Shown: one piece after another, positions 29,702 through 37,720 of the stretch
How positions within the stretch are numbered: position 1 is the first letter of the stretch
Layout of the letters: each line of letters starts with the position of its first letter
Assembly: GCA_963795855.1 (NCBI GenBank)
Contig: CAWCIZ010000006.1
Coordinates: 32,001-96,000 of the forward strand
Source: Vulcanimicrobiota bacterium
GTDB lineage: Bacteria > Vulcanimicrobiota > Vulcanimicrobiia > Vulcanimicrobiales > Vulcanimicrobiaceae
Direction of reading: 5' to 3'
DNA length: 64,000 bases
Translations under genes and position numbers: made by a program
Notes under the pieces: generated by a model
Seen by the model: the letters and a program-made list of their open reading frames with translations, nothing else
Database searches by the model: none
What the model was told of the DNA's origin: nothing

Positions 29702-32480
<2,779 letters not shown>

Positions 32481-32718: not shown

Positions 32719-32973
32719 TTAGCCTAGTTTCAACCCGTATTCGGCGGCCGCGGATGCAAGCCCCGGATACTTTTTATTTTTTTCCGCGAGAGCGGCGCAT
32801 TCCGCCGAACACAGATAGACGCCGCGCCCAGGTTGTCTCGTCCGGCCCGTGTCGGGTTGCCACGAACGCTGCCCCGCTCGAACGAAGCGGCGCATGGCTG
32901 CTTGCGGATTCCGCTTGCGGCAGCCTGCGCATTGTCGAATCGGTCCTTCGATGGTCTTGGCGTCCGCGCTCAC
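32719..32973 (-). CDS. ylxR: YlxR (DUF448) RNA-binding protein
   Basis: PIRQCAGCR...GRGVYLCSAEC; GTG start overlaps the nusA stop. Confidence 0.88.
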   Translation of the reverse strand: MSADAKTIEGPIRQCAGCRKRNPQAAMRRFVRAGQRSWQPDTGRTRQPGRGVYLCSAECAALAEKNKKYPGLASAAAEYGLKLG

Positions 32974-34190
32974 TCGCCCAAACGTTCGCGTTTGAACTCT
33001 TCGAGTTTGCGAATCAGCTCTTCGTCGATTCCCGCCGGCGCCGCGACCGTTTCTTCTTCGGCCACCACTTCTTCGACGACGGGCTCTTCGGTTTCGGGCA
33101 GCGTCTCCGTCTGCGCGTGCGCGCGTTCTGCGAGATACCGGTCGCGCGCCTCGGCGGCTTCGGTTTCGCTCGCGATGTCGAGCCGCCAGCCCGTCAATCG
33201 CGCTGCAAGACGCACGTTTTGACCTTCGCGCCCGATTGCAAGAGAGAGCTGATAATCCGGAACGACGACCAGTGCAACGCCGTCGTCCTCGAAGAGCTCG
33301 ACGTTGAGCACCTTCGCGGGCTGCAGCGCGTTCATGATGAACGCGACGTGATCCGGTTCGTAACGTATGACGTCGATTTTCTCGCCCCGCAGCTCGTCGG
33401 AAACGTTCGCGATGCGGCTGGATTTCGGTCCCAGACACGCACCGATCGGATCGATCTCCGCCCGGTTGCTTCGGACCGCGACCTTCGTTCTGCTGCCGGG
33501 CTCGCGCGCGATCGCCATGATTTCGACGAGGCCGTCTTGGATTTCGGGCACTTCAAACTCGAGCAATCGCTGCACCAGACCTTCGGCAGCGCGCGAGAGA
33601 ATCACGCTCGGGCCCTTCGGCGATTTGCGCACGTCGAGCACGTACGCCCGAATGAAGTCGTTGATGCGGAAGTTCTCGCGCGGCACTTGCTCGGAGAGCG
33701 GAAGCATCGCTTCGTCTTTTCCTTCGAGCAGCACGTACATGTTGCGCTGTTCGAAACGCTGCACCGTGCCCTTGACGATGTCGTTCAACTTCGCCGCGTA
33801 TTTGTTGTAGACGGTGTCGCGCTCCGCTTCCCGAATGCGCTGCACGATTACTTGCTTTGCCGTCTGCGCGGCGATGCGCCCGAAGTCTTTCGGCGTCACT
33901 TCTTCGTCGAAATAGTCGCCCACCTGATACTGCGAACCGGCGGCTTTCGGCGTCACTTCCAATTTCGGATCGCCGACTTCTTCCACGACGGTGCGGCGAT
34001 GGAAAACTTTGTATTCGCCGTTCTGACGGTCGACCGTCACGATCGCGTTGGCTTCGCTGCCGAAATGCCGCTTATAGGCGGTCAATAACGCCGCCTCGAG
34101 CGCCTCGATGAGCATCTCGAACGGAATATTCCGTTCTTTCGAGATGAACTGCAGGACGTCGATCAGCCGCTCTTCGGTTGCTTCAGGCAT
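32970..34190 (-). CDS. nusA: Transcription termination/antitermination factor NusA
   Basis: FGRIAAQTAKQVIVQRIREAER, AREPGSRTKVAV, SLAIGREGQNVRLAARLTGW. Confidence 0.97.
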   Translation of the reverse strand: MPEATEERLIDVLQFISKERNIPFEMLIEALEAALLTAYKRHFGSEANAIVTVDRQNGEYKVFHRRTVVEEVGDPKLEVTPKAAGSQYQVGDYFDEEVTPKDFGRIAAQTAKQVIVQRIREAERDTVYNKYAAKLNDIVKGTVQRFEQRNMYVLLEGKDEAMLPLSEQVPRENFRINDFIRAYVLDVRKSPKGPSVILSRAAEGLVQRLLEFEVPEIQDGLVEIMAIAREPGSRTKVAVRSNRAEIDPIGACLGPKSSRIANVSDELRGEKIDVIRYEPDHVAFIMNALQPAKVLNVELFEDDGVALVVVPDYQLSLAIGREGQNVRLAARLTGWRLDIASETEAAEARDRYLAERAHAQTETLPETEEPVVEEVVAEEETVAAPAGIDEELIRKLEEFKRERLGE

Positions 34191-34246: not shown

Positions 34247-34768
34247 TCAGGCATGACTTTTACGTTGCTTTTTGTCTCGCGTGAGATCGGACCGGATGTC
34301 GTATTCGAGGTTTGCGCGTTCGATGGTAGCGAGCGGGAGCGGCAATTCGCCTTTGCCCGTCTCCAGTATCACGTTCGTGCCGCGAACGCCGCGCAGAACG
34401 CCCCGATGCGTTTTCCCGCCCTGCACGAGCAGCGACGTAACGATTTTGGCGTCCCGTCCCGCGAAGCGTTCGTAATCGCCGGGCTTTGTCAGCGGGCGGT
34501 TCAAGCCTGCGGATTCGACTTCGAGCGTGTACGGTTCGTCGCACGTTTCGAGCCGCGCGTTGACCGCGCCCGCGACGCGTTCGCACGTTGCAACGTCGAC
34601 GCCGCCGTCGCGATCGATCGTTATCGAAAGCGCGGTCATGCGCCGTCCGCCGCGCGCGCTGTGCTGCACCACTTCGACGCCGGAGAAACGCGAATCGTGC
34701 ACGATATCGTCTATCGCGCGCTCGAACGCGTGAGTCAAAGGCCCGGCGGCCCCTCTCCGATTCTGCAT
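34247..34768 (-). CDS. rimP: Ribosome maturation factor RimP
   Basis: GGVDVATCERV, YTLEVESAGLNRPL; first gene of the nusA-infB operon. Confidence 0.93.
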   Translation of the reverse strand: MQNRRGAAGPLTHAFERAIDDIVHDSRFSGVEVVQHSARGGRRMTALSITIDRDGGVDVATCERVAGAVNARLETCDEPYTLEVESAGLNRPLTKPGDYERFAGRDAKIVTSLLVQGGKTHRGVLRGVRGTNVILETGKGELPLPLATIERANLEYDIRSDLTRDKKQRKSHA

Positions 34769-34786
34769 GTGCCCCTATCAACAACG

Positions 34787-34809
34787 AAGCGCGGGACCTG
34801 CCCACGCTC
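34787..34809 (-). promoter_or_regulatory. rimP-leader-like hairpin
   Basis: Minus strand GAGCGUGGG-CAGGU-CCCGCGCUU just upstream of the rimP RBS; resembles the conserved GUGGG/CCCAC rimP leader stem. Confidence 0.6.
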
Positions 34810-34827
34810 GTACGACTACCGCACCTA

Positions 34828-34856
34828 AGAATACCCGAACATACGACGGGCCGCAA
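34828..34856 (-). promoter_or_regulatory. Putative sigma70 promoter of the rimP operon
   Basis: TTGCGG-N17-TATTCT on the minus strand. Confidence 0.5.
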
Positions 34857-35048
34857 CCCCAAGTGGGTGCGGCCCCTCGATCCTATTCAATCGCTTTTTG
34901 AGCGCGCACGAACCGGTTACGTCCGGCTGCCGCTGAGCGCTTGCCTAGCGCTCTTATCTGGCGCGCCCGTTTGGGCTTCGGTAGCCCGGTGGATCTTGCG
35001 GTTCCAACCGCCCTCCTTATGTCAGACGCTCAAAGTCTCTCGTGAGAC
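34840..35048 (-). ncRNA. Candidate structured non-coding RNA (~200 nt), family not recognised
   Basis: Own promoter; 5' hairpin; 9-bp closing stem 35026-35034/34897-34905 enclosing at least four hairpins; terminal GGGCCGCA/TGCGGCCC hairpin. Confidence 0.55.
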
Positions 35049-35054
35049 AGCTCG

Positions 35055-35083
35055 ATTGTACGACTACGCGAGCAGCTCTACAA
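35055..35083 (-). promoter_or_regulatory. Putative sigma70 promoter driving the candidate ncRNA
   Basis: TTGTAG-N17-TACAAT on the minus strand; G at 35048 is 7 nt downstream of the -10. Confidence 0.6.
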
Positions 35084-35100
35084 GAAGCTGGCGTCACCAC

Positions 35101-36291
35101 TCATGGGCCACTGGTGGGCAGGGGAGAGGGTGGTGAGAACGGTGCCAAGCGCCCCGCGCAAATAAACGATTCGTTGGGCTCGATAATCCATTTTTGGTTT
35201 CCCGCGATCGGCGAACGCAGCACCCAACCGGTACACCAGTTGATGAAGCCGATGCGTTTGACCGACGTGACGTACATCTTCACGTACCGCTCTTCAGGCG
35301 CCGTACCGAGCCACGACTGCTTCCAACGTTGGGAAGCAACGTTCTCGACGTACAGGAACTTCGTTGCCGCGATGACGTCGGCGGGCGGCGTGGGCTCCGG
35401 CTGCGGCGTCGGCAAAATGCTGCCCATCGCGTAATGCTTCGGCGGCGCAGGCGATATCGACGGCGACGCGGTCGGGATGAGACTTCGCAGGCGCTCGTTC
35501 AAGCTTGGATGATGCTTCTTGCTCGGGACGGGGCCCGGCGCCGGCGCCGTCACCGGAACGGGCGCGGGCCGCGAAGCAGCGGTCACCTTAACGGGCGCGA
35601 CGGCGCGCGGGCCGGCAGAGCCGATGGGCTTCGGCCCGGGCGTGGCCGCCACACCGTGCTGGACGGTACGCACCGCAATCTTCACTTGGGAGGCTATGCC
35701 CGGCGTTGACAGGGGGACCGGCGAGGGTGCTTGAGCCGCGATCGGCGCCGCCGTCACCTGTATGACCGAAGGCGCGGGCTCGGGCGTGCGCGGGGTCGGC
35801 GTGGGCGGCACTTTCACCGCGACCGACACAGCCGCGGCCGGAGCGCTCGTCGGCACTTGCTGCGGGAGCGGCGCAGCCGTCACGGCGATGACGGCTTGCG
35901 TCGGAACCGGTTTCGGCGCCGGCGTTCGAAGCGGTGGAGGCGTTGGATTCGGAGGCGCGGTGGGCGCGAACTTCGAGAGCTCGTGTACGACGCGCGGTTG
36001 CGGCACAGCTTGCCGCTGCGGTGCGGGTTGCGCAGCTTTCGCCGACCGCGCCGGCGCGCTCGAGGATACCGGCCGTGCGCTTATCGTCATGATGACGGCG
36101 CCGCTGACCGATTCCGACGCCTGTTGCGACGAAGACGTCGCGATCGAAAACACGAGCAGCGCGAGCAGCGCATGCACTATCAGCGAGGCCACAAAACTGC
36201 CCGCCGTACGTTCCGGACGGTGCCGGTCGAGTGGGTCGCGTCTCAAACGCAGGACCCTTCGGGAGCTCTCGCGCACGAGCCTTGAGCCCAT
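35101..36291 (-). CDS. Hypothetical membrane-anchored Pro/Ala-rich protein
   Basis: TonB-like anchor helix (SLIVHALLALLVF), long Pro/Ala/Thr linker, ~85-aa C-terminal globular part with Trp and two Cys; start probably somewhat downstream of 36291. Confidence 0.7.
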   Translation of the reverse strand: MGSRLVRESSRRVLRLRRDPLDRHRPERTAGSFVASLIVHALLALLVFSIATSSSQQASESVSGAVIMTISARPVSSSAPARSAKAAQPAPQRQAVPQPRVVHELSKFAPTAPPNPTPPPLRTPAPKPVPTQAVIAVTAAPLPQQVPTSAPAAAVSVAVKVPPTPTPRTPEPAPSVIQVTAAPIAAQAPSPVPLSTPGIASQVKIAVRTVQHGVAATPGPKPIGSAGPRAVAPVKVTAASRPAPVPVTAPAPGPVPSKKHHPSLNERLRSLIPTASPSISPAPPKHYAMGSILPTPQPEPTPPADVIAATKFLYVENVASQRWKQSWLGTAPEERYVKMYVTSVKRIGFINWCTGWVLRSPIAGNQKWIIEPNESFICAGRLAPFSPPSPLPTSGP

Positions 36292-37720
36292 GGAAAAAAT
36301 TCAAAAACGCACGAAAATCGTCGCGACGCTCGGACCTGCGTCGCGCGATCCCGAGATGATTCGTTCGCTCGTTCTCTCCGGCGCAAACGTATTTCGTTTG
36401 AACTTCTCACACGGTTCGCCGAAAGAACACAGCGAGACGATCGACGCGATTCGGAAGGTCGCCAAAGACCTCGATCAGCACATTGCCGTTCTTCAGGATC
36501 TGCCGGGGCCGAAGGTGCGAACCGGCAAGTTCGCAGACGGGCAAACGTCAATCGTTCTTGAGCGCGGCAAAGCTTTCCAGCTGACGACGCAGGATACCGC
36601 GGGCACTCCCGAGCGCGTAGCCGTTTCCTATCACGATCTCCCGGCGGACGTCGCCGTCGGTAAGCGGCTGTATCTGCAGGACGGCGCGATCACGCTTCGC
36701 ATCCTCGACAAGAGCGCGACGGAAATCAACACGGTGGTCGAAGTCGGCGGAGAGCTTCGACCCCAGCAGGGCATCAATTATCCCGACGGCACGCTGAACG
36801 TCTCCGCGGTATCCGACCGTGACCTCGAACTGCTCGCTTTCGGCCTGGAAAAAGACGTCGACTACGTCGCGGTCTCATTCGTGCGCAGCGCCGACGATAT
36901 CCACCGCGTCAAGCAGTTCATGCGCGAACGCGGCAAGGCGCCGCACGTTCTTGCGAAGATCGAAAAACACGAGGCTTTGGACGACATCGACAATATCGTC
37001 GCCGCCGCCGACGGAATCATGGTCGCGCGCGGGGATTTGGGTATCGAAGTCCCGCTCGAGCAAGTGCCGATGATTCAGAAAGACTTGATCGCTCGGTGCA
37101 ATCGCGCGAGCAAACCCGTCGTGACGGCGACGCAGATGCTCGAGTCGATGACGTTCAACTCGCGCCCGACGCGCGCCGAGACCACCGACGTCGCGAACGC
37201 AATCCTGGACGGCACCGACGCCGTCATGCTTTCCGGAGAAACGGCGCGCGGCCAATACCCGATGGAAGCGGTGCGCGTCATGGCCGAAATCGCGCGCGAA
37301 GTCGAAAAACAGTACCCGCATGAAGTGCTGCAGCTGCGCCGGCTGGAAGGCGCCACCCGCGACATCGCGACGTCGATCGCAGAGGCGGCGACCCGCTCTA
37401 GCGCGGAGTTGCGGCTGCCGTACATCGTCACCGGAACGACGACCGGCAACGCCGCGCATCATATCTCCGCGTTTCGGCCGAAAGCGCAGATTATCGCGCT
37501 TACGCCGATGCCGGAAGTCGCGCGCCGGCTCGCGCTCCTTTGGGGCATCGAATCCATTCTGATCGAGCGCTACGCCTCGATAGACGTGCTGCTCCATATC
37601 ATGGAGCAGCGAATGTTGGCCGAAGGGCTGGCGGACCGCGGCGATTGCGTCGCGTTCACCACCGGTATGCCCGTCGGCGGCGGCGGCACGAATCTGCTCA
37701 AGATTCACGAGATTGCTTAA
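36290..37720 (+). CDS. pyk: Pyruvate kinase
   Basis: RTKIVATLGPAS, RLNFSHG, KIEK, MVARGDLG, TATQMLESM, PTRAE, DAVMLSGETA. Confidence 0.97.
   Translation: MEKIQKRTKIVATLGPASRDPEMIRSLVLSGANVFRLNFSHGSPKEHSETIDAIRKVAKDLDQHIAVLQDLPGPKVRTGKFADGQTSIVLERGKAFQLTTQDTAGTPERVAVSYHDLPADVAVGKRLYLQDGAITLRILDKSATEINTVVEVGGELRPQQGINYPDGTLNVSAVSDRDLELLAFGLEKDVDYVAVSFVRSADDIHRVKQFMRERGKAPHVLAKIEKHEALDDIDNIVAAADGIMVARGDLGIEVPLEQVPMIQKDLIARCNRASKPVVTATQMLESMTFNSRPTRAETTDVANAILDGTDAVMLSGETARGQYPMEAVRVMAEIAREVEKQYPHEVLQLRRLEGATRDIATSIAEAATRSSAELRLPYIVTGTTTGNAAHHISAFRPKAQIIALTPMPEVARRLALLWGIESILIERYASIDVLLHIMEQRMLAEGLADRGDCVAFTTGMPVGGGGTNLLKIHEIA

Follow-up and report, generated by a model that had tools for sequence, protein, structure and literature searches.

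A covarying small RNA with a conserved 17-codon mini-ORF, mostly found next to rimP-nusA-infB in a family of Eremiobacterota, is a candidate ribosome-gated sensor

What is encoded in the DNA that precedes the rimP-nusA-infB operon of an uncultured soil bacterium of the phylum Eremiobacterota (Vulcanimicrobiota)? The stretch that we analysed, hereafter called the window, is 64,000 nucleotides (nt) long (positions 32,001 to 96,000 of contig CAWCIZ010000006.1, assembly GCA_963795855.1). In it, a 332-nt gap lies between an unannotated 396-codon open reading frame (ORF; 35101-36291) and rimP (34247-34768), both on the minus strand, to which all coordinates below refer unless noted. A preliminary description of this gap had listed two promoters, a series of hairpins and a tiny ORF, and had suggested a novel structured RNA acting as a stand-alone small RNA (sRNA), a protein sponge or a leader-peptide attenuator. 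All the listed features were recovered where it had placed them. All the RNA features fall within the gap, and the small RNA gene occupies 35083-34835, just 5' of the operon. Our reading, which we regard as evenly poised between right and wrong, is that of a stand-alone sRNA gene of ~205 nt, with a covarying junction and a 17-codon mini-ORF, that would serve as a ribosome-gated sensor of translation capacity.

Does the RNA belong to a known class? A covariance-model search of the whole window detected no Rfam 15 family at the gathering score; the preliminary description had recognized no hallmarks of 6S, SRP, RNase P, tmRNA, T-box or common riboswitches. Permissive Rfam thresholds applied to 34500-35400 returned noise only (E > 3), and matches to Pxr (16 bits) and mir-1822 were rejected as such. 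When the loci of 18 relatives were searched in the same database, three tRNAs were the only matches and none fell on the RNA. The signal recognition particle (SRP) RNA (RF00169, 71 bits) and the transfer-messenger RNA (tmRNA; RF00023, 120 bits) of the same genome are on other contigs. A divergent 6S RNA (RF00013), an SRP RNA or a tmRNA was rejected as the identity of the RNA, because these lie elsewhere in the genome. The best 6S-like match, at G000:C3:331936-332122 (-) (locus L139), also on another contig, is full-length but weak, at 19.6 bits (E = 0.1, for a cut-off of 46.4 bits); it may represent a divergent 6S RNA of the phylum. The literature searched yielded no description of the RNA studied here, and among the papers listed the term Eremiobacter* never co-occurred with the RNA terms.

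The predicted RNA is highly structured. The predicted promoter P1 (35055..35083) comprises TTGTAG (35083-35078), a 17-nt spacer and TACAAT (35060-35055), which would place the transcription start near G35048. The 211-nt RNA folds at -95.6 kcal/mol, compared with -75.9 +/- 4.4 kcal/mol for 200 dinucleotide shuffles (z = -4.5), none of which folds as well. Its minimum-free-energy fold includes the hairpin GUCUC-ACGA-GAGAC (35035..35048) at the predicted 5' end. Next comes a core module (34990..35019) with a Shine-Dalgarno box, UAAGGAGG (35019-35012), which partly pairs with UCC (34993-34991) around hairpin P2 (GCGGU-UGGA-ACCGC, 35011-34998). Hairpin P3 (GGGCU-ACCGA-AGCCC, 34973..34987) is followed by a three-way junction (34900..34968), made up of the closing helix P4 (GGGCGCGC, 34968-34961, with GCGCGCUC, 34907-34900) and the arms P4a (GAGCGCU-AGGCA-AGCGCUC, 34953-34935) and P4b (AGCCGG-ACGUAA-CCGGUU, 34928-34911, which includes CCGG-ACGUAA-CCGG). 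An A-rich linker (34880..34899), whose sequence and length differ among genera in the alignments, leads to a terminator-like GC-rich hairpin (34879-34844; 34835..34879 including the tail), whose U tail, UAUGUUCGG, is weak. The closing stem UUUGAGCGU/GCGCUCAAA of the preliminary description does form in the minimum-free-energy fold of the window but is not a conserved pairing: its 3' strand belongs to P4, and it has no counterpart in distant genera.

Where else is the RNA found? The intergenic DNA used as a BLAST query matched 21 of the 24 other genomes of the window's family (f1), none of five genomes of f2 and none of 11 of f3; this tally includes the unpublished genome G014, on which no claim depends. 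A scan for the core pattern GGAGGGCG-N8-CGCARGATCCRCC in one genome per species, 185,579 species in all, yielded 112 loci, ~101 of them genuine. The other 11, in Streptomyces, Coriobacteriales and others, were rejected by inspection as chance matches lacking hairpin complementarity. By their lineage names, 90 of the 101 genuine loci come from Vulcanimicrobiota or Candidatus Eremiobacterota and 11 carry unspecific or other labels. One of those labels is Alphaproteobacteria, for locus L061, whose sequence is the same, over the compared stretches, as that of L026 from an f1 genome (G020). In a survey of a sample of genomes with R1, the covariance model of the RNA that is introduced below, 65 of 71 other f1 genomes gave a match, with one copy each and a weak second match in two; completeness is 93-99% for the six f1 genomes that gave none. 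Outside f1, 79 genomes from 20 further families of the phylum gave one weak R1 match (26 bits). To judge from these surveys, the RNA family is single-copy and nearly universal in one large family of this uncultured soil phylum, the Eremiobacterota.

The loci are of two kinds. At those of the first kind, GGGC...GCCC comes after the core, and all 55 loci with enough flank have a co-oriented rimP within 244-545 nt downstream. Those of the second kind are never near rimP (15 loci with full flank). Seven of them lie after a divergent E1-dehydrogenase gene and have ammonium-transporter (Amt), TetR or other genes downstream, and L051, with a truncated upstream flank, belongs with these. Five have a divergent VTT/DedA gene on one side and NUDIX or MBL genes on the other, and one is located between lepA and tRNA-Pro-Arg-His. 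All second-kind RNAs end in strong terminators, hairpins with U-rich tails; their downstream structure was folded one sequence at a time. R1 gives these relatives just 25-40 bits, a range that overlaps chance hits such as L136 (31 bits). Genomes with second-kind loci (G011, G019 and G020) have no small RNA at rimP. The presence of one gene per genome at a changeable place argues for an independent gene.

The flanks of the RNA point in the same direction. Of 103 distinct relatives, 88 have TTGNNN-N16-18-TANNNT 5' of the core, 76 of them with a 17-nt spacer, compared with 3.8% of shuffles. A simple promoter scan of the window called neither P1 nor the second promoter, P2, because their -35 box matches at 3 of 6 positions only. 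The closing GC-rich hairpin is conserved in the alignments of relatives. The U-run that follows it has at least 4 U in 37 of 72 parsed relatives and at most 2 in 19, the window included. In a terminator scan of the window, this hairpin was not called, and the sole call was 34809-34787, before rimP. Taken together with the single copy and the changeable location, the conserved promoter and terminal hairpin point, on computational evidence, to an independent transcription unit.

Alignment of the DNA upstream of rimP distinguishes three elements, namely the small RNA, the promoter-like site P2 and a leader of ~45 nt. P2, the predicted rimP promoter (34828..34856), consists of TTGCGG (34856-34851), 17 nt and TATTCT (34833-34828), and its -35 box sits in the 3' arm of the closing GC-rich hairpin. 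GGGTTGCGG and GTATNCT of P2 are conserved in the alignments, which bears out the preliminary description of a second promoter overlapping the last hairpin. In the leader (34779..34822), which is outside the small RNA, CGUUGUUGAU comes after the hairpin GAGCGUGGG-CAGG(U)-CCCGCGCUU (34809-34787); the hairpin together with CGUUGUUG lies 19 nt 5' of ATG 34768. Promoter and leader were found at 21 of the 21 rimP loci examined, including five without the small RNA (L018, L019, L020, L021 and L023, of which L020 comes from G014). The leader element matches no Rfam model at E <= 10. Naville & Gautheret (2010, PMC2965389) describe a rimP-leader, located 4-130 nt from the start codon, as a G-rich/C-rich hairpin that has a GGGc...gCCC core and is followed by a U stretch, and propose NusA autoregulation. 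Compared by eye, the 34809-34787 hairpin and its U-containing tail fit that published description. The small RNA differs from the rimP-leader in lying upstream of both the leader and P2, and it is absent at rimP of some genera that keep the leader. On this comparison, the element at 34779-34822 appears to be of the known rimP-leader kind and separate from the small RNA. Of the three functions offered by the preliminary description, that of a stand-alone sRNA fits best, because the RNA is single-copy, lies away from rimP in other genera and has strong terminators there.

Is the fold conserved as well? The core is nearly invariant among relatives, and hairpin P2 covaries (GCGG/CCGC, GCGA/UCGC, GCGC/GCGC). 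The GGA/UCC pairing never varies in the alignment and is therefore neither supported nor refuted. We wrote by hand a structure of 33 pairs in 7 helices on an alignment of 30 well-aligning cores. There, 92.7% of the cells are paired with little variation, and just 3 pairs show double changes, which amounts to weak covariation. The model R1 was built from this alignment, and the sequences were then realigned with it. R1 scores the window at 75.4 bits over 34899-35020 (-), and it matches 97 of 97 first-kind sources at 59-137 bits. In the R1 alignment (88 distinct rows), the proportion of paired cells is 93.4%, compared with 30-42% when the partners are slid. The preliminary description had named covarying conservation in relatives as a test of its proposal, and 21 of the 33 pairs have changed on both sides. 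Covariation scores 0.149, as opposed to 0.073 in shuffles, none of 500 of which reaches it, and 0.014-0.033 with slid partners. Double changes occur at all 4+6 pairs of the two segments of P4 and at all 6 P4a pairs; for P3, the figures are 97.4% paired cells and double changes at 2 of 4 pairs. The conserved order is that of the window: a 5' hairpin, present at this place in relatives of both kinds (e.g. GUCUCGAGAC in loci away from rimP), the Shine-Dalgarno box and UCC around P2, P3, the junction of P4, P4a and P4b, the A-rich linker and the terminal hairpin. The conserved fold is a three-way junction with covarying helices, and the preliminary view of a conserved, structured RNA with its own promoter stands, for an RNA of ~205 nt.

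The RNA also contains a mini-ORF (34954..35007), whose UUG start (35007-35005) is inside P2 and which runs for 17 codons (MEPQDPPGYRSPNGRAR) up to UAA (34956-34954). By its coordinates it spans P2, P3 and the P4 5' strand (34968-34961). Its Asp-Pro-Pro-Gly codons are at 34995-34984, and P3 comes directly after the Pro-Pro codons. Its final codons supply the P4 5' strand; the stop codon is in the junction. Is it a gene or an accident of the sequence? Across 92 distinct variants, an in-frame NUG is present four codons 5' of GAU in 91 (83 UUG, 5 AUG and 3 GUG). Gln-Asp-Pro-Pro is encoded in all 92, the invariance of Asp-Pro being partly by construction because the scan pattern itself demanded GATCCRCC. 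The window peptide starts with Met-Glu-Pro-Gln-Asp-Pro-Pro-Gly, of which M-x-x-Q-D-P-P only is common to the family. The length is 17 codons in 55 of the 92 variants, some of them away from rimP, within an overall range of 9 to 42 codons.

The reading frame is similarly constrained at its 3' end. For the junction, we considered the 88 first-kind rows: the first in-frame stop lies in the junction, after the P4 5' strand, in 73 of them, and the stop triplets of the junction are in frame 0 in 74 rows, compared with 3 and 3 in the other frames. This stop stays in frame over at least 7 length classes. Eight rows have a +1 change in the P3 loop compensated by a -1 change in the P4 internal loop, a frame compensation for which RNA structure alone offers no reason. 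From the start codon to the junction, 2 distinct contexts contain a stop triplet in frame 0, versus 10 and 16 in frames 1 and 2. By our own binomial estimate, this depletion (2/28 against an expected one third) has p ~0.001, although the contexts are not fully independent. Eight second-kind RNAs have two modules, and in 8/8 of them the second module retains GGAGG, an NUG in frame, Asp-Pro-Pro and, 2-5 codons further on, a stop, with the frame still kept even though the hairpin between the Shine-Dalgarno sequence and the start varies in length. The preliminary description had pointed out a UUG-started ORF of 17 codons with its start inside a stem, and start, frame and stop all proved conserved. 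The pattern indicates that the mini-ORF is conserved as an ORF and is not incidental.

How might such an ORF operate? Asp-Pro-Pro and Pro-Pro-Gly are among the strongest stalls that depend on elongation factor P (EF-P). We propose that the mini-ORF is translated, as its frame conservation suggests, and that Gln-Asp-Pro-Pro after Met-Glu-Pro would slow or abort ribosomes, as do polyproline and the Asp/Glu/Pro-rich N-termini in MgtL and MgtP. Ribosomes that pass Asp-Pro-Pro would unwind the junction. The junction would remain folded if ribosomes stall, or if pairing of the Shine-Dalgarno box prevents initiation. The conformation of the RNA could then report on EF-P, prolyl-tRNA, Mg2+ or ribosome status. 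The predicted output is a trans activity of the folded RNA or of the A-rich linker, and in the rimP-linked form some read-through into rimP-nusA-infB might also occur. The genome encodes EF-P, Hfq and CsrA. More tentatively, and with rather more doubt than confidence, we envisage a free-standing, trans-acting 'ribosome test track', whose fold would be switched by ribosome start and passage through an MgtL-like ORF and which, uncoupled from any one gene, would sense translation capacity (EF-P, prolyl-tRNA, Mg2+ or ribosome integrity).

Several observations weigh against a sensor of this type. The relatives away from rimP have just 3-4 Asp, Glu or Pro among the first six residues, and the first module of two loci (L094 and L132) contains no start codon. 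At the nucleotide level, the core varies less than a peptide needs, since GAA CCG CAA GAU is nearly devoid of synonymous change in the rimP-linked form, and the variable positions, CCR and CCN, coincide with a mismatch and a helix end, so that an RNA-level constraint could explain part of the pattern. The alignment that shows covariation was fitted to R1, which favours the structure; the controls with slid partners speak against a pure alignment artefact. Plain MAFFT and RNAalifold on 60 cores recovered three helices only (the module, P2 and the CCGG/CCGG pairing), because the 3' half aligns badly. On the side of a real RNA gene, a weak hint of transcription comes from one root metatranscriptome run, searched as contigs, which contains 0.04 of the words and is uninformative about the uncovered parts. 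Four of its contigs, 85-95% alike, come from relatives; three of them cover 34772-35018 at a word depth of 4-15, and one contig of 165 nt spans roughly the RNA body. These RNA contigs do not come from the bacterium of the window itself, and DNA carry-over is possible.

The closest parallels are the MgtL and MgtP leaders. A study by Chadani and colleagues (bioRxiv 10.1101/2021.02.02.429294) gives at least 4 Asp, Glu or Pro among 6 N-terminal residues as the criterion for intrinsic ribosome destabilization, and reports that EPDP of MgtL aborts translation within MEPDPT, more so at low Mg2+. In the window peptide, MEPQDPP, which resembles that Asp/Glu/Pro-rich N-terminus, 5 of the 6 residues after Met are Asp, Glu or Pro. 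According to another report (PMC6460261), EF-P affects mgtA and mgtCBR transcription by way of the proline codons in mgtL and a run of three prolines in mgtP. The same report places mgtL at nt 71-124 of a 264-nt leader, so that both are very short ORFs inside a structured RNA and both measure 54 nt (17 codons and a stop in the window; see also PMC5021804 and PMC12856214 on leaders of the MgtL/MgtP type). Like proline-codon sensor ORFs, the mini-ORF thus combines an Asp/Glu/Pro-rich motif, a very short length and an overlap with helices. Its prolines are consecutive (Asp-Pro-Pro-Gly), as in MgtP, and not alternating. In MgtL and MgtP, the progress of the ribosome over proline codons decides which helices form, with EF-P, prolyl-tRNA and Mg2+ as inputs; a counterpart of this is what we propose for the window RNA. 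The differences are substantial. MgtL and MgtP act in cis in the leaders of Mg2+-transporter genes and are read out as transcription elongation into the gene. What lies downstream of the small RNA is not an Mg2+ transporter but rimP-nusA-infB or Amt, TetR, NUDIX, MBL or tRNA genes. The small RNA ends in a conserved terminator hairpin of its own, and none of the modelled ribosome positions opens it. Its locus moves between genomes, and it has no sequence or Rfam relationship with those leaders.

Another comparison is with dual-function sRNAs that contain tiny ORFs, such as SgrS/SgrT, Spot 42/SpfP, RNAIII/hld and SR1/SR1P, in which the peptide itself is thought to act. They are likewise independent units of ~200 nt with a promoter and a terminator, and combine a conserved structure with a short ORF. 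The small RNA differs from them in that only the first seven residues are conserved and form a stall-type motif.

Could the RNA instead be a cis leader-peptide attenuator of rimP-nusA-infB, with transcripts from P1 ending at the GC-rich hairpin or reading through depending on translation of the ORF? The invariable position of the rimP-linked RNA, directly upstream and co-oriented, and the layout of a leader ORF with a terminator fit this possibility. As in attenuators of the trpL/hisL type, a short ORF with 'difficult' codons precedes helices and a terminator hairpin. Read-through into rimP is plausible here, given the weak U tail of the window's genus; the tail is stronger elsewhere. The P4 3' strand (GGCGCG) is complementary to CGCGCC in the 5' arm of the terminator in many relatives, and PMC2965389 reports tandem attenuators before rimP in Gammaproteobacteria. 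A switch of this sort would nevertheless require that translation alter the terminator, and with a 30-nt mask at the stop or at the second Pro codon the terminator hairpin was kept in 72 of 74 RNAs, in minimum-free-energy folds that reflect thermodynamics only. The putative antiterminator pairing shows no covariation, since GGCGCG is found unchanged alongside terminator variants that have A at the key position, and neither the complementarity search nor the masked folding revealed a mutually exclusive antiterminator. In contrast with the trpL/hisL type, the stop codon is ~75 nt before the terminator and a promoter stands between the RNA and the operon. The conserved P2 and rimP-leader separate the RNA from rimP, and both persist where it is missing. 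The second-kind relatives precede unrelated genes from which U-rich terminators separate them, and each genome has one copy. The RNA therefore shares with attenuators an ORF followed by a terminator, without an antiterminator or direct control of a constant gene partner having been found. We consider this explanation unlikely, and the attenuator function put forward in the preliminary description was not borne out.

Decidedly improbable, in our assessment, is a purely non-coding RNA, either a base-pairing sRNA of the Hfq type or a protein-binding RNA, in which the ORF features would be by-products of constraints on the RNA. The invariance of the core at the nucleotide level agrees with it, the succession of an A-rich linker and a terminator hairpin is reminiscent of Hfq-dependent sRNAs, and both Hfq and CsrA have genes in the genome. 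It fails to account for a start kept as UUG, AUG or GUG, for a stop held in frame through compensated indels in two separate loops, for the depletion of in-frame stops and for the frame of all eight second modules; such frame statistics are hard to explain without translation. The presence of GGA in the P2 loop UGGA and in the Shine-Dalgarno box might suggest a sponge for CsrA/RsmA (CsrB/RsmZ type), one form of the protein sponge that the preliminary description had offered. However, of the four GGAs counted in that description only that of the P2 loop is in a hairpin loop, and it is not kept in relatives away from rimP; in other members the loop reads UGAC, UGAU or UUGAAC. The sponge was thus not supported, although CsrA, which the genome encodes, may bind the Shine-Dalgarno box and P2.

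Very unlikely, finally, is that the RNA is the mRNA of a functional 17-residue micropeptide with the downstream structure as a stabilizing 3' region: the prevalence of 17 codons, also at some loci away from rimP, and a loose C-terminal pattern, A-R-[D/E]-x-R-A-x, favour it, but the tails differ, shift frame and vary in length beyond the common M-x-x-Q-D-P-P, the second modules encode unrelated tails of 11-14 residues, and the C-terminal pattern falls on the helix strands GCCC, GCGA and CGCGCC, so that RNA pairing explains it.

A gene on the opposite strand was also considered and rejected, the antisense open frame over the core varying from 58 to 476 codons in 47 relatives. Short open antisense frames are common in the region, and the plus-strand ORFs 34588-35136 and 35042-35434 have no Pfam match.

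Some further observations were made on the RNA and its surroundings. In L028 (1700-2074), a tRNA-Pro(UGG)-Arg-His cluster is located ~100 nt 3' of the small RNA terminator, a single case; the conserved prolines of the mini-ORF are CCA and CCG codons. TGTCTAATG is found between the small RNA terminator and the ammonium-transporter gene in L051, L061 and L093, and L073 has the same ammonium-transporter gene downstream without TGTCTAATG, which may be the gene's own regulatory site. In L027, L046, L063 and others (Cybelea/Tumulicola-like), CGCGCCCACG occurs twice, at the P4a 3' arm and junction and in the 5' arm of the terminator, and GCCCACG(C) is complementary to the 5' arm of the rimP-leader hairpin, GCGUGGGC. 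The window RNA pairs via GCGCUC with GAGCGU instead, the register being unconserved. This repeat and its complementarity to the leader may be due to chance in GC-rich sequence.

The operon downstream comprises rimP (Pfam RimP_N and DUF150_C), nusA (32970-34190; NusA_N, S1 and KH_5) and infB (29702-32480; IF2_N, GTP_EFTU and IF-2). The tblastn alignments of rimP with relatives start at residue 11 in 17 of 24 loci, the N-terminal extension being unconserved, and the true start may be TTG 34738-34736, at residue 11 of the listed ORF, rather than ATG 34768. In the window, infB consists of two ORFs in different frames, 31236-32480 (IF2_N) and 29702-31357 (GTPase to C-terminus), with a 122-nt overlap, which could reflect an assembly frameshift or a real split. 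On the other side of the RNA, the 396-codon ORF has no Pfam match, and its C-terminal end is kept in relatives (…WIIEPNESFICAG…). On the strand opposite to it lies a pyruvate kinase gene, 35762-37720 (+); its true start is probably near 36300, because the listed ORF has its Pfam domains from residue 182 onwards.

What does this locus tell us about these bacteria? At the least, it defines an RNA family absent from Rfam, for which a model, a structure and a distribution are now available, and it resolves the 'intergenic' DNA before rimP into three separate elements, the small RNA, the promoter P2 and the rimP-leader. Leader ORFs prone to stalling are known as sensors that act in cis and are tied to a single gene, such as mgtL before a Mg2+ transporter. 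Here, the same kind of ORF is found in a self-contained, terminator-bounded, covarying RNA that is able to sit at different places in the genome and that, in most of the family, adjoins the operon for 30S maturation, NusA and initiation factor IF2. If translation gates its fold, this RNA would constitute a portable read-out of ribosome performance, and it would provide a handle on the tuning of ribosome biogenesis and initiation factors in these bacteria.

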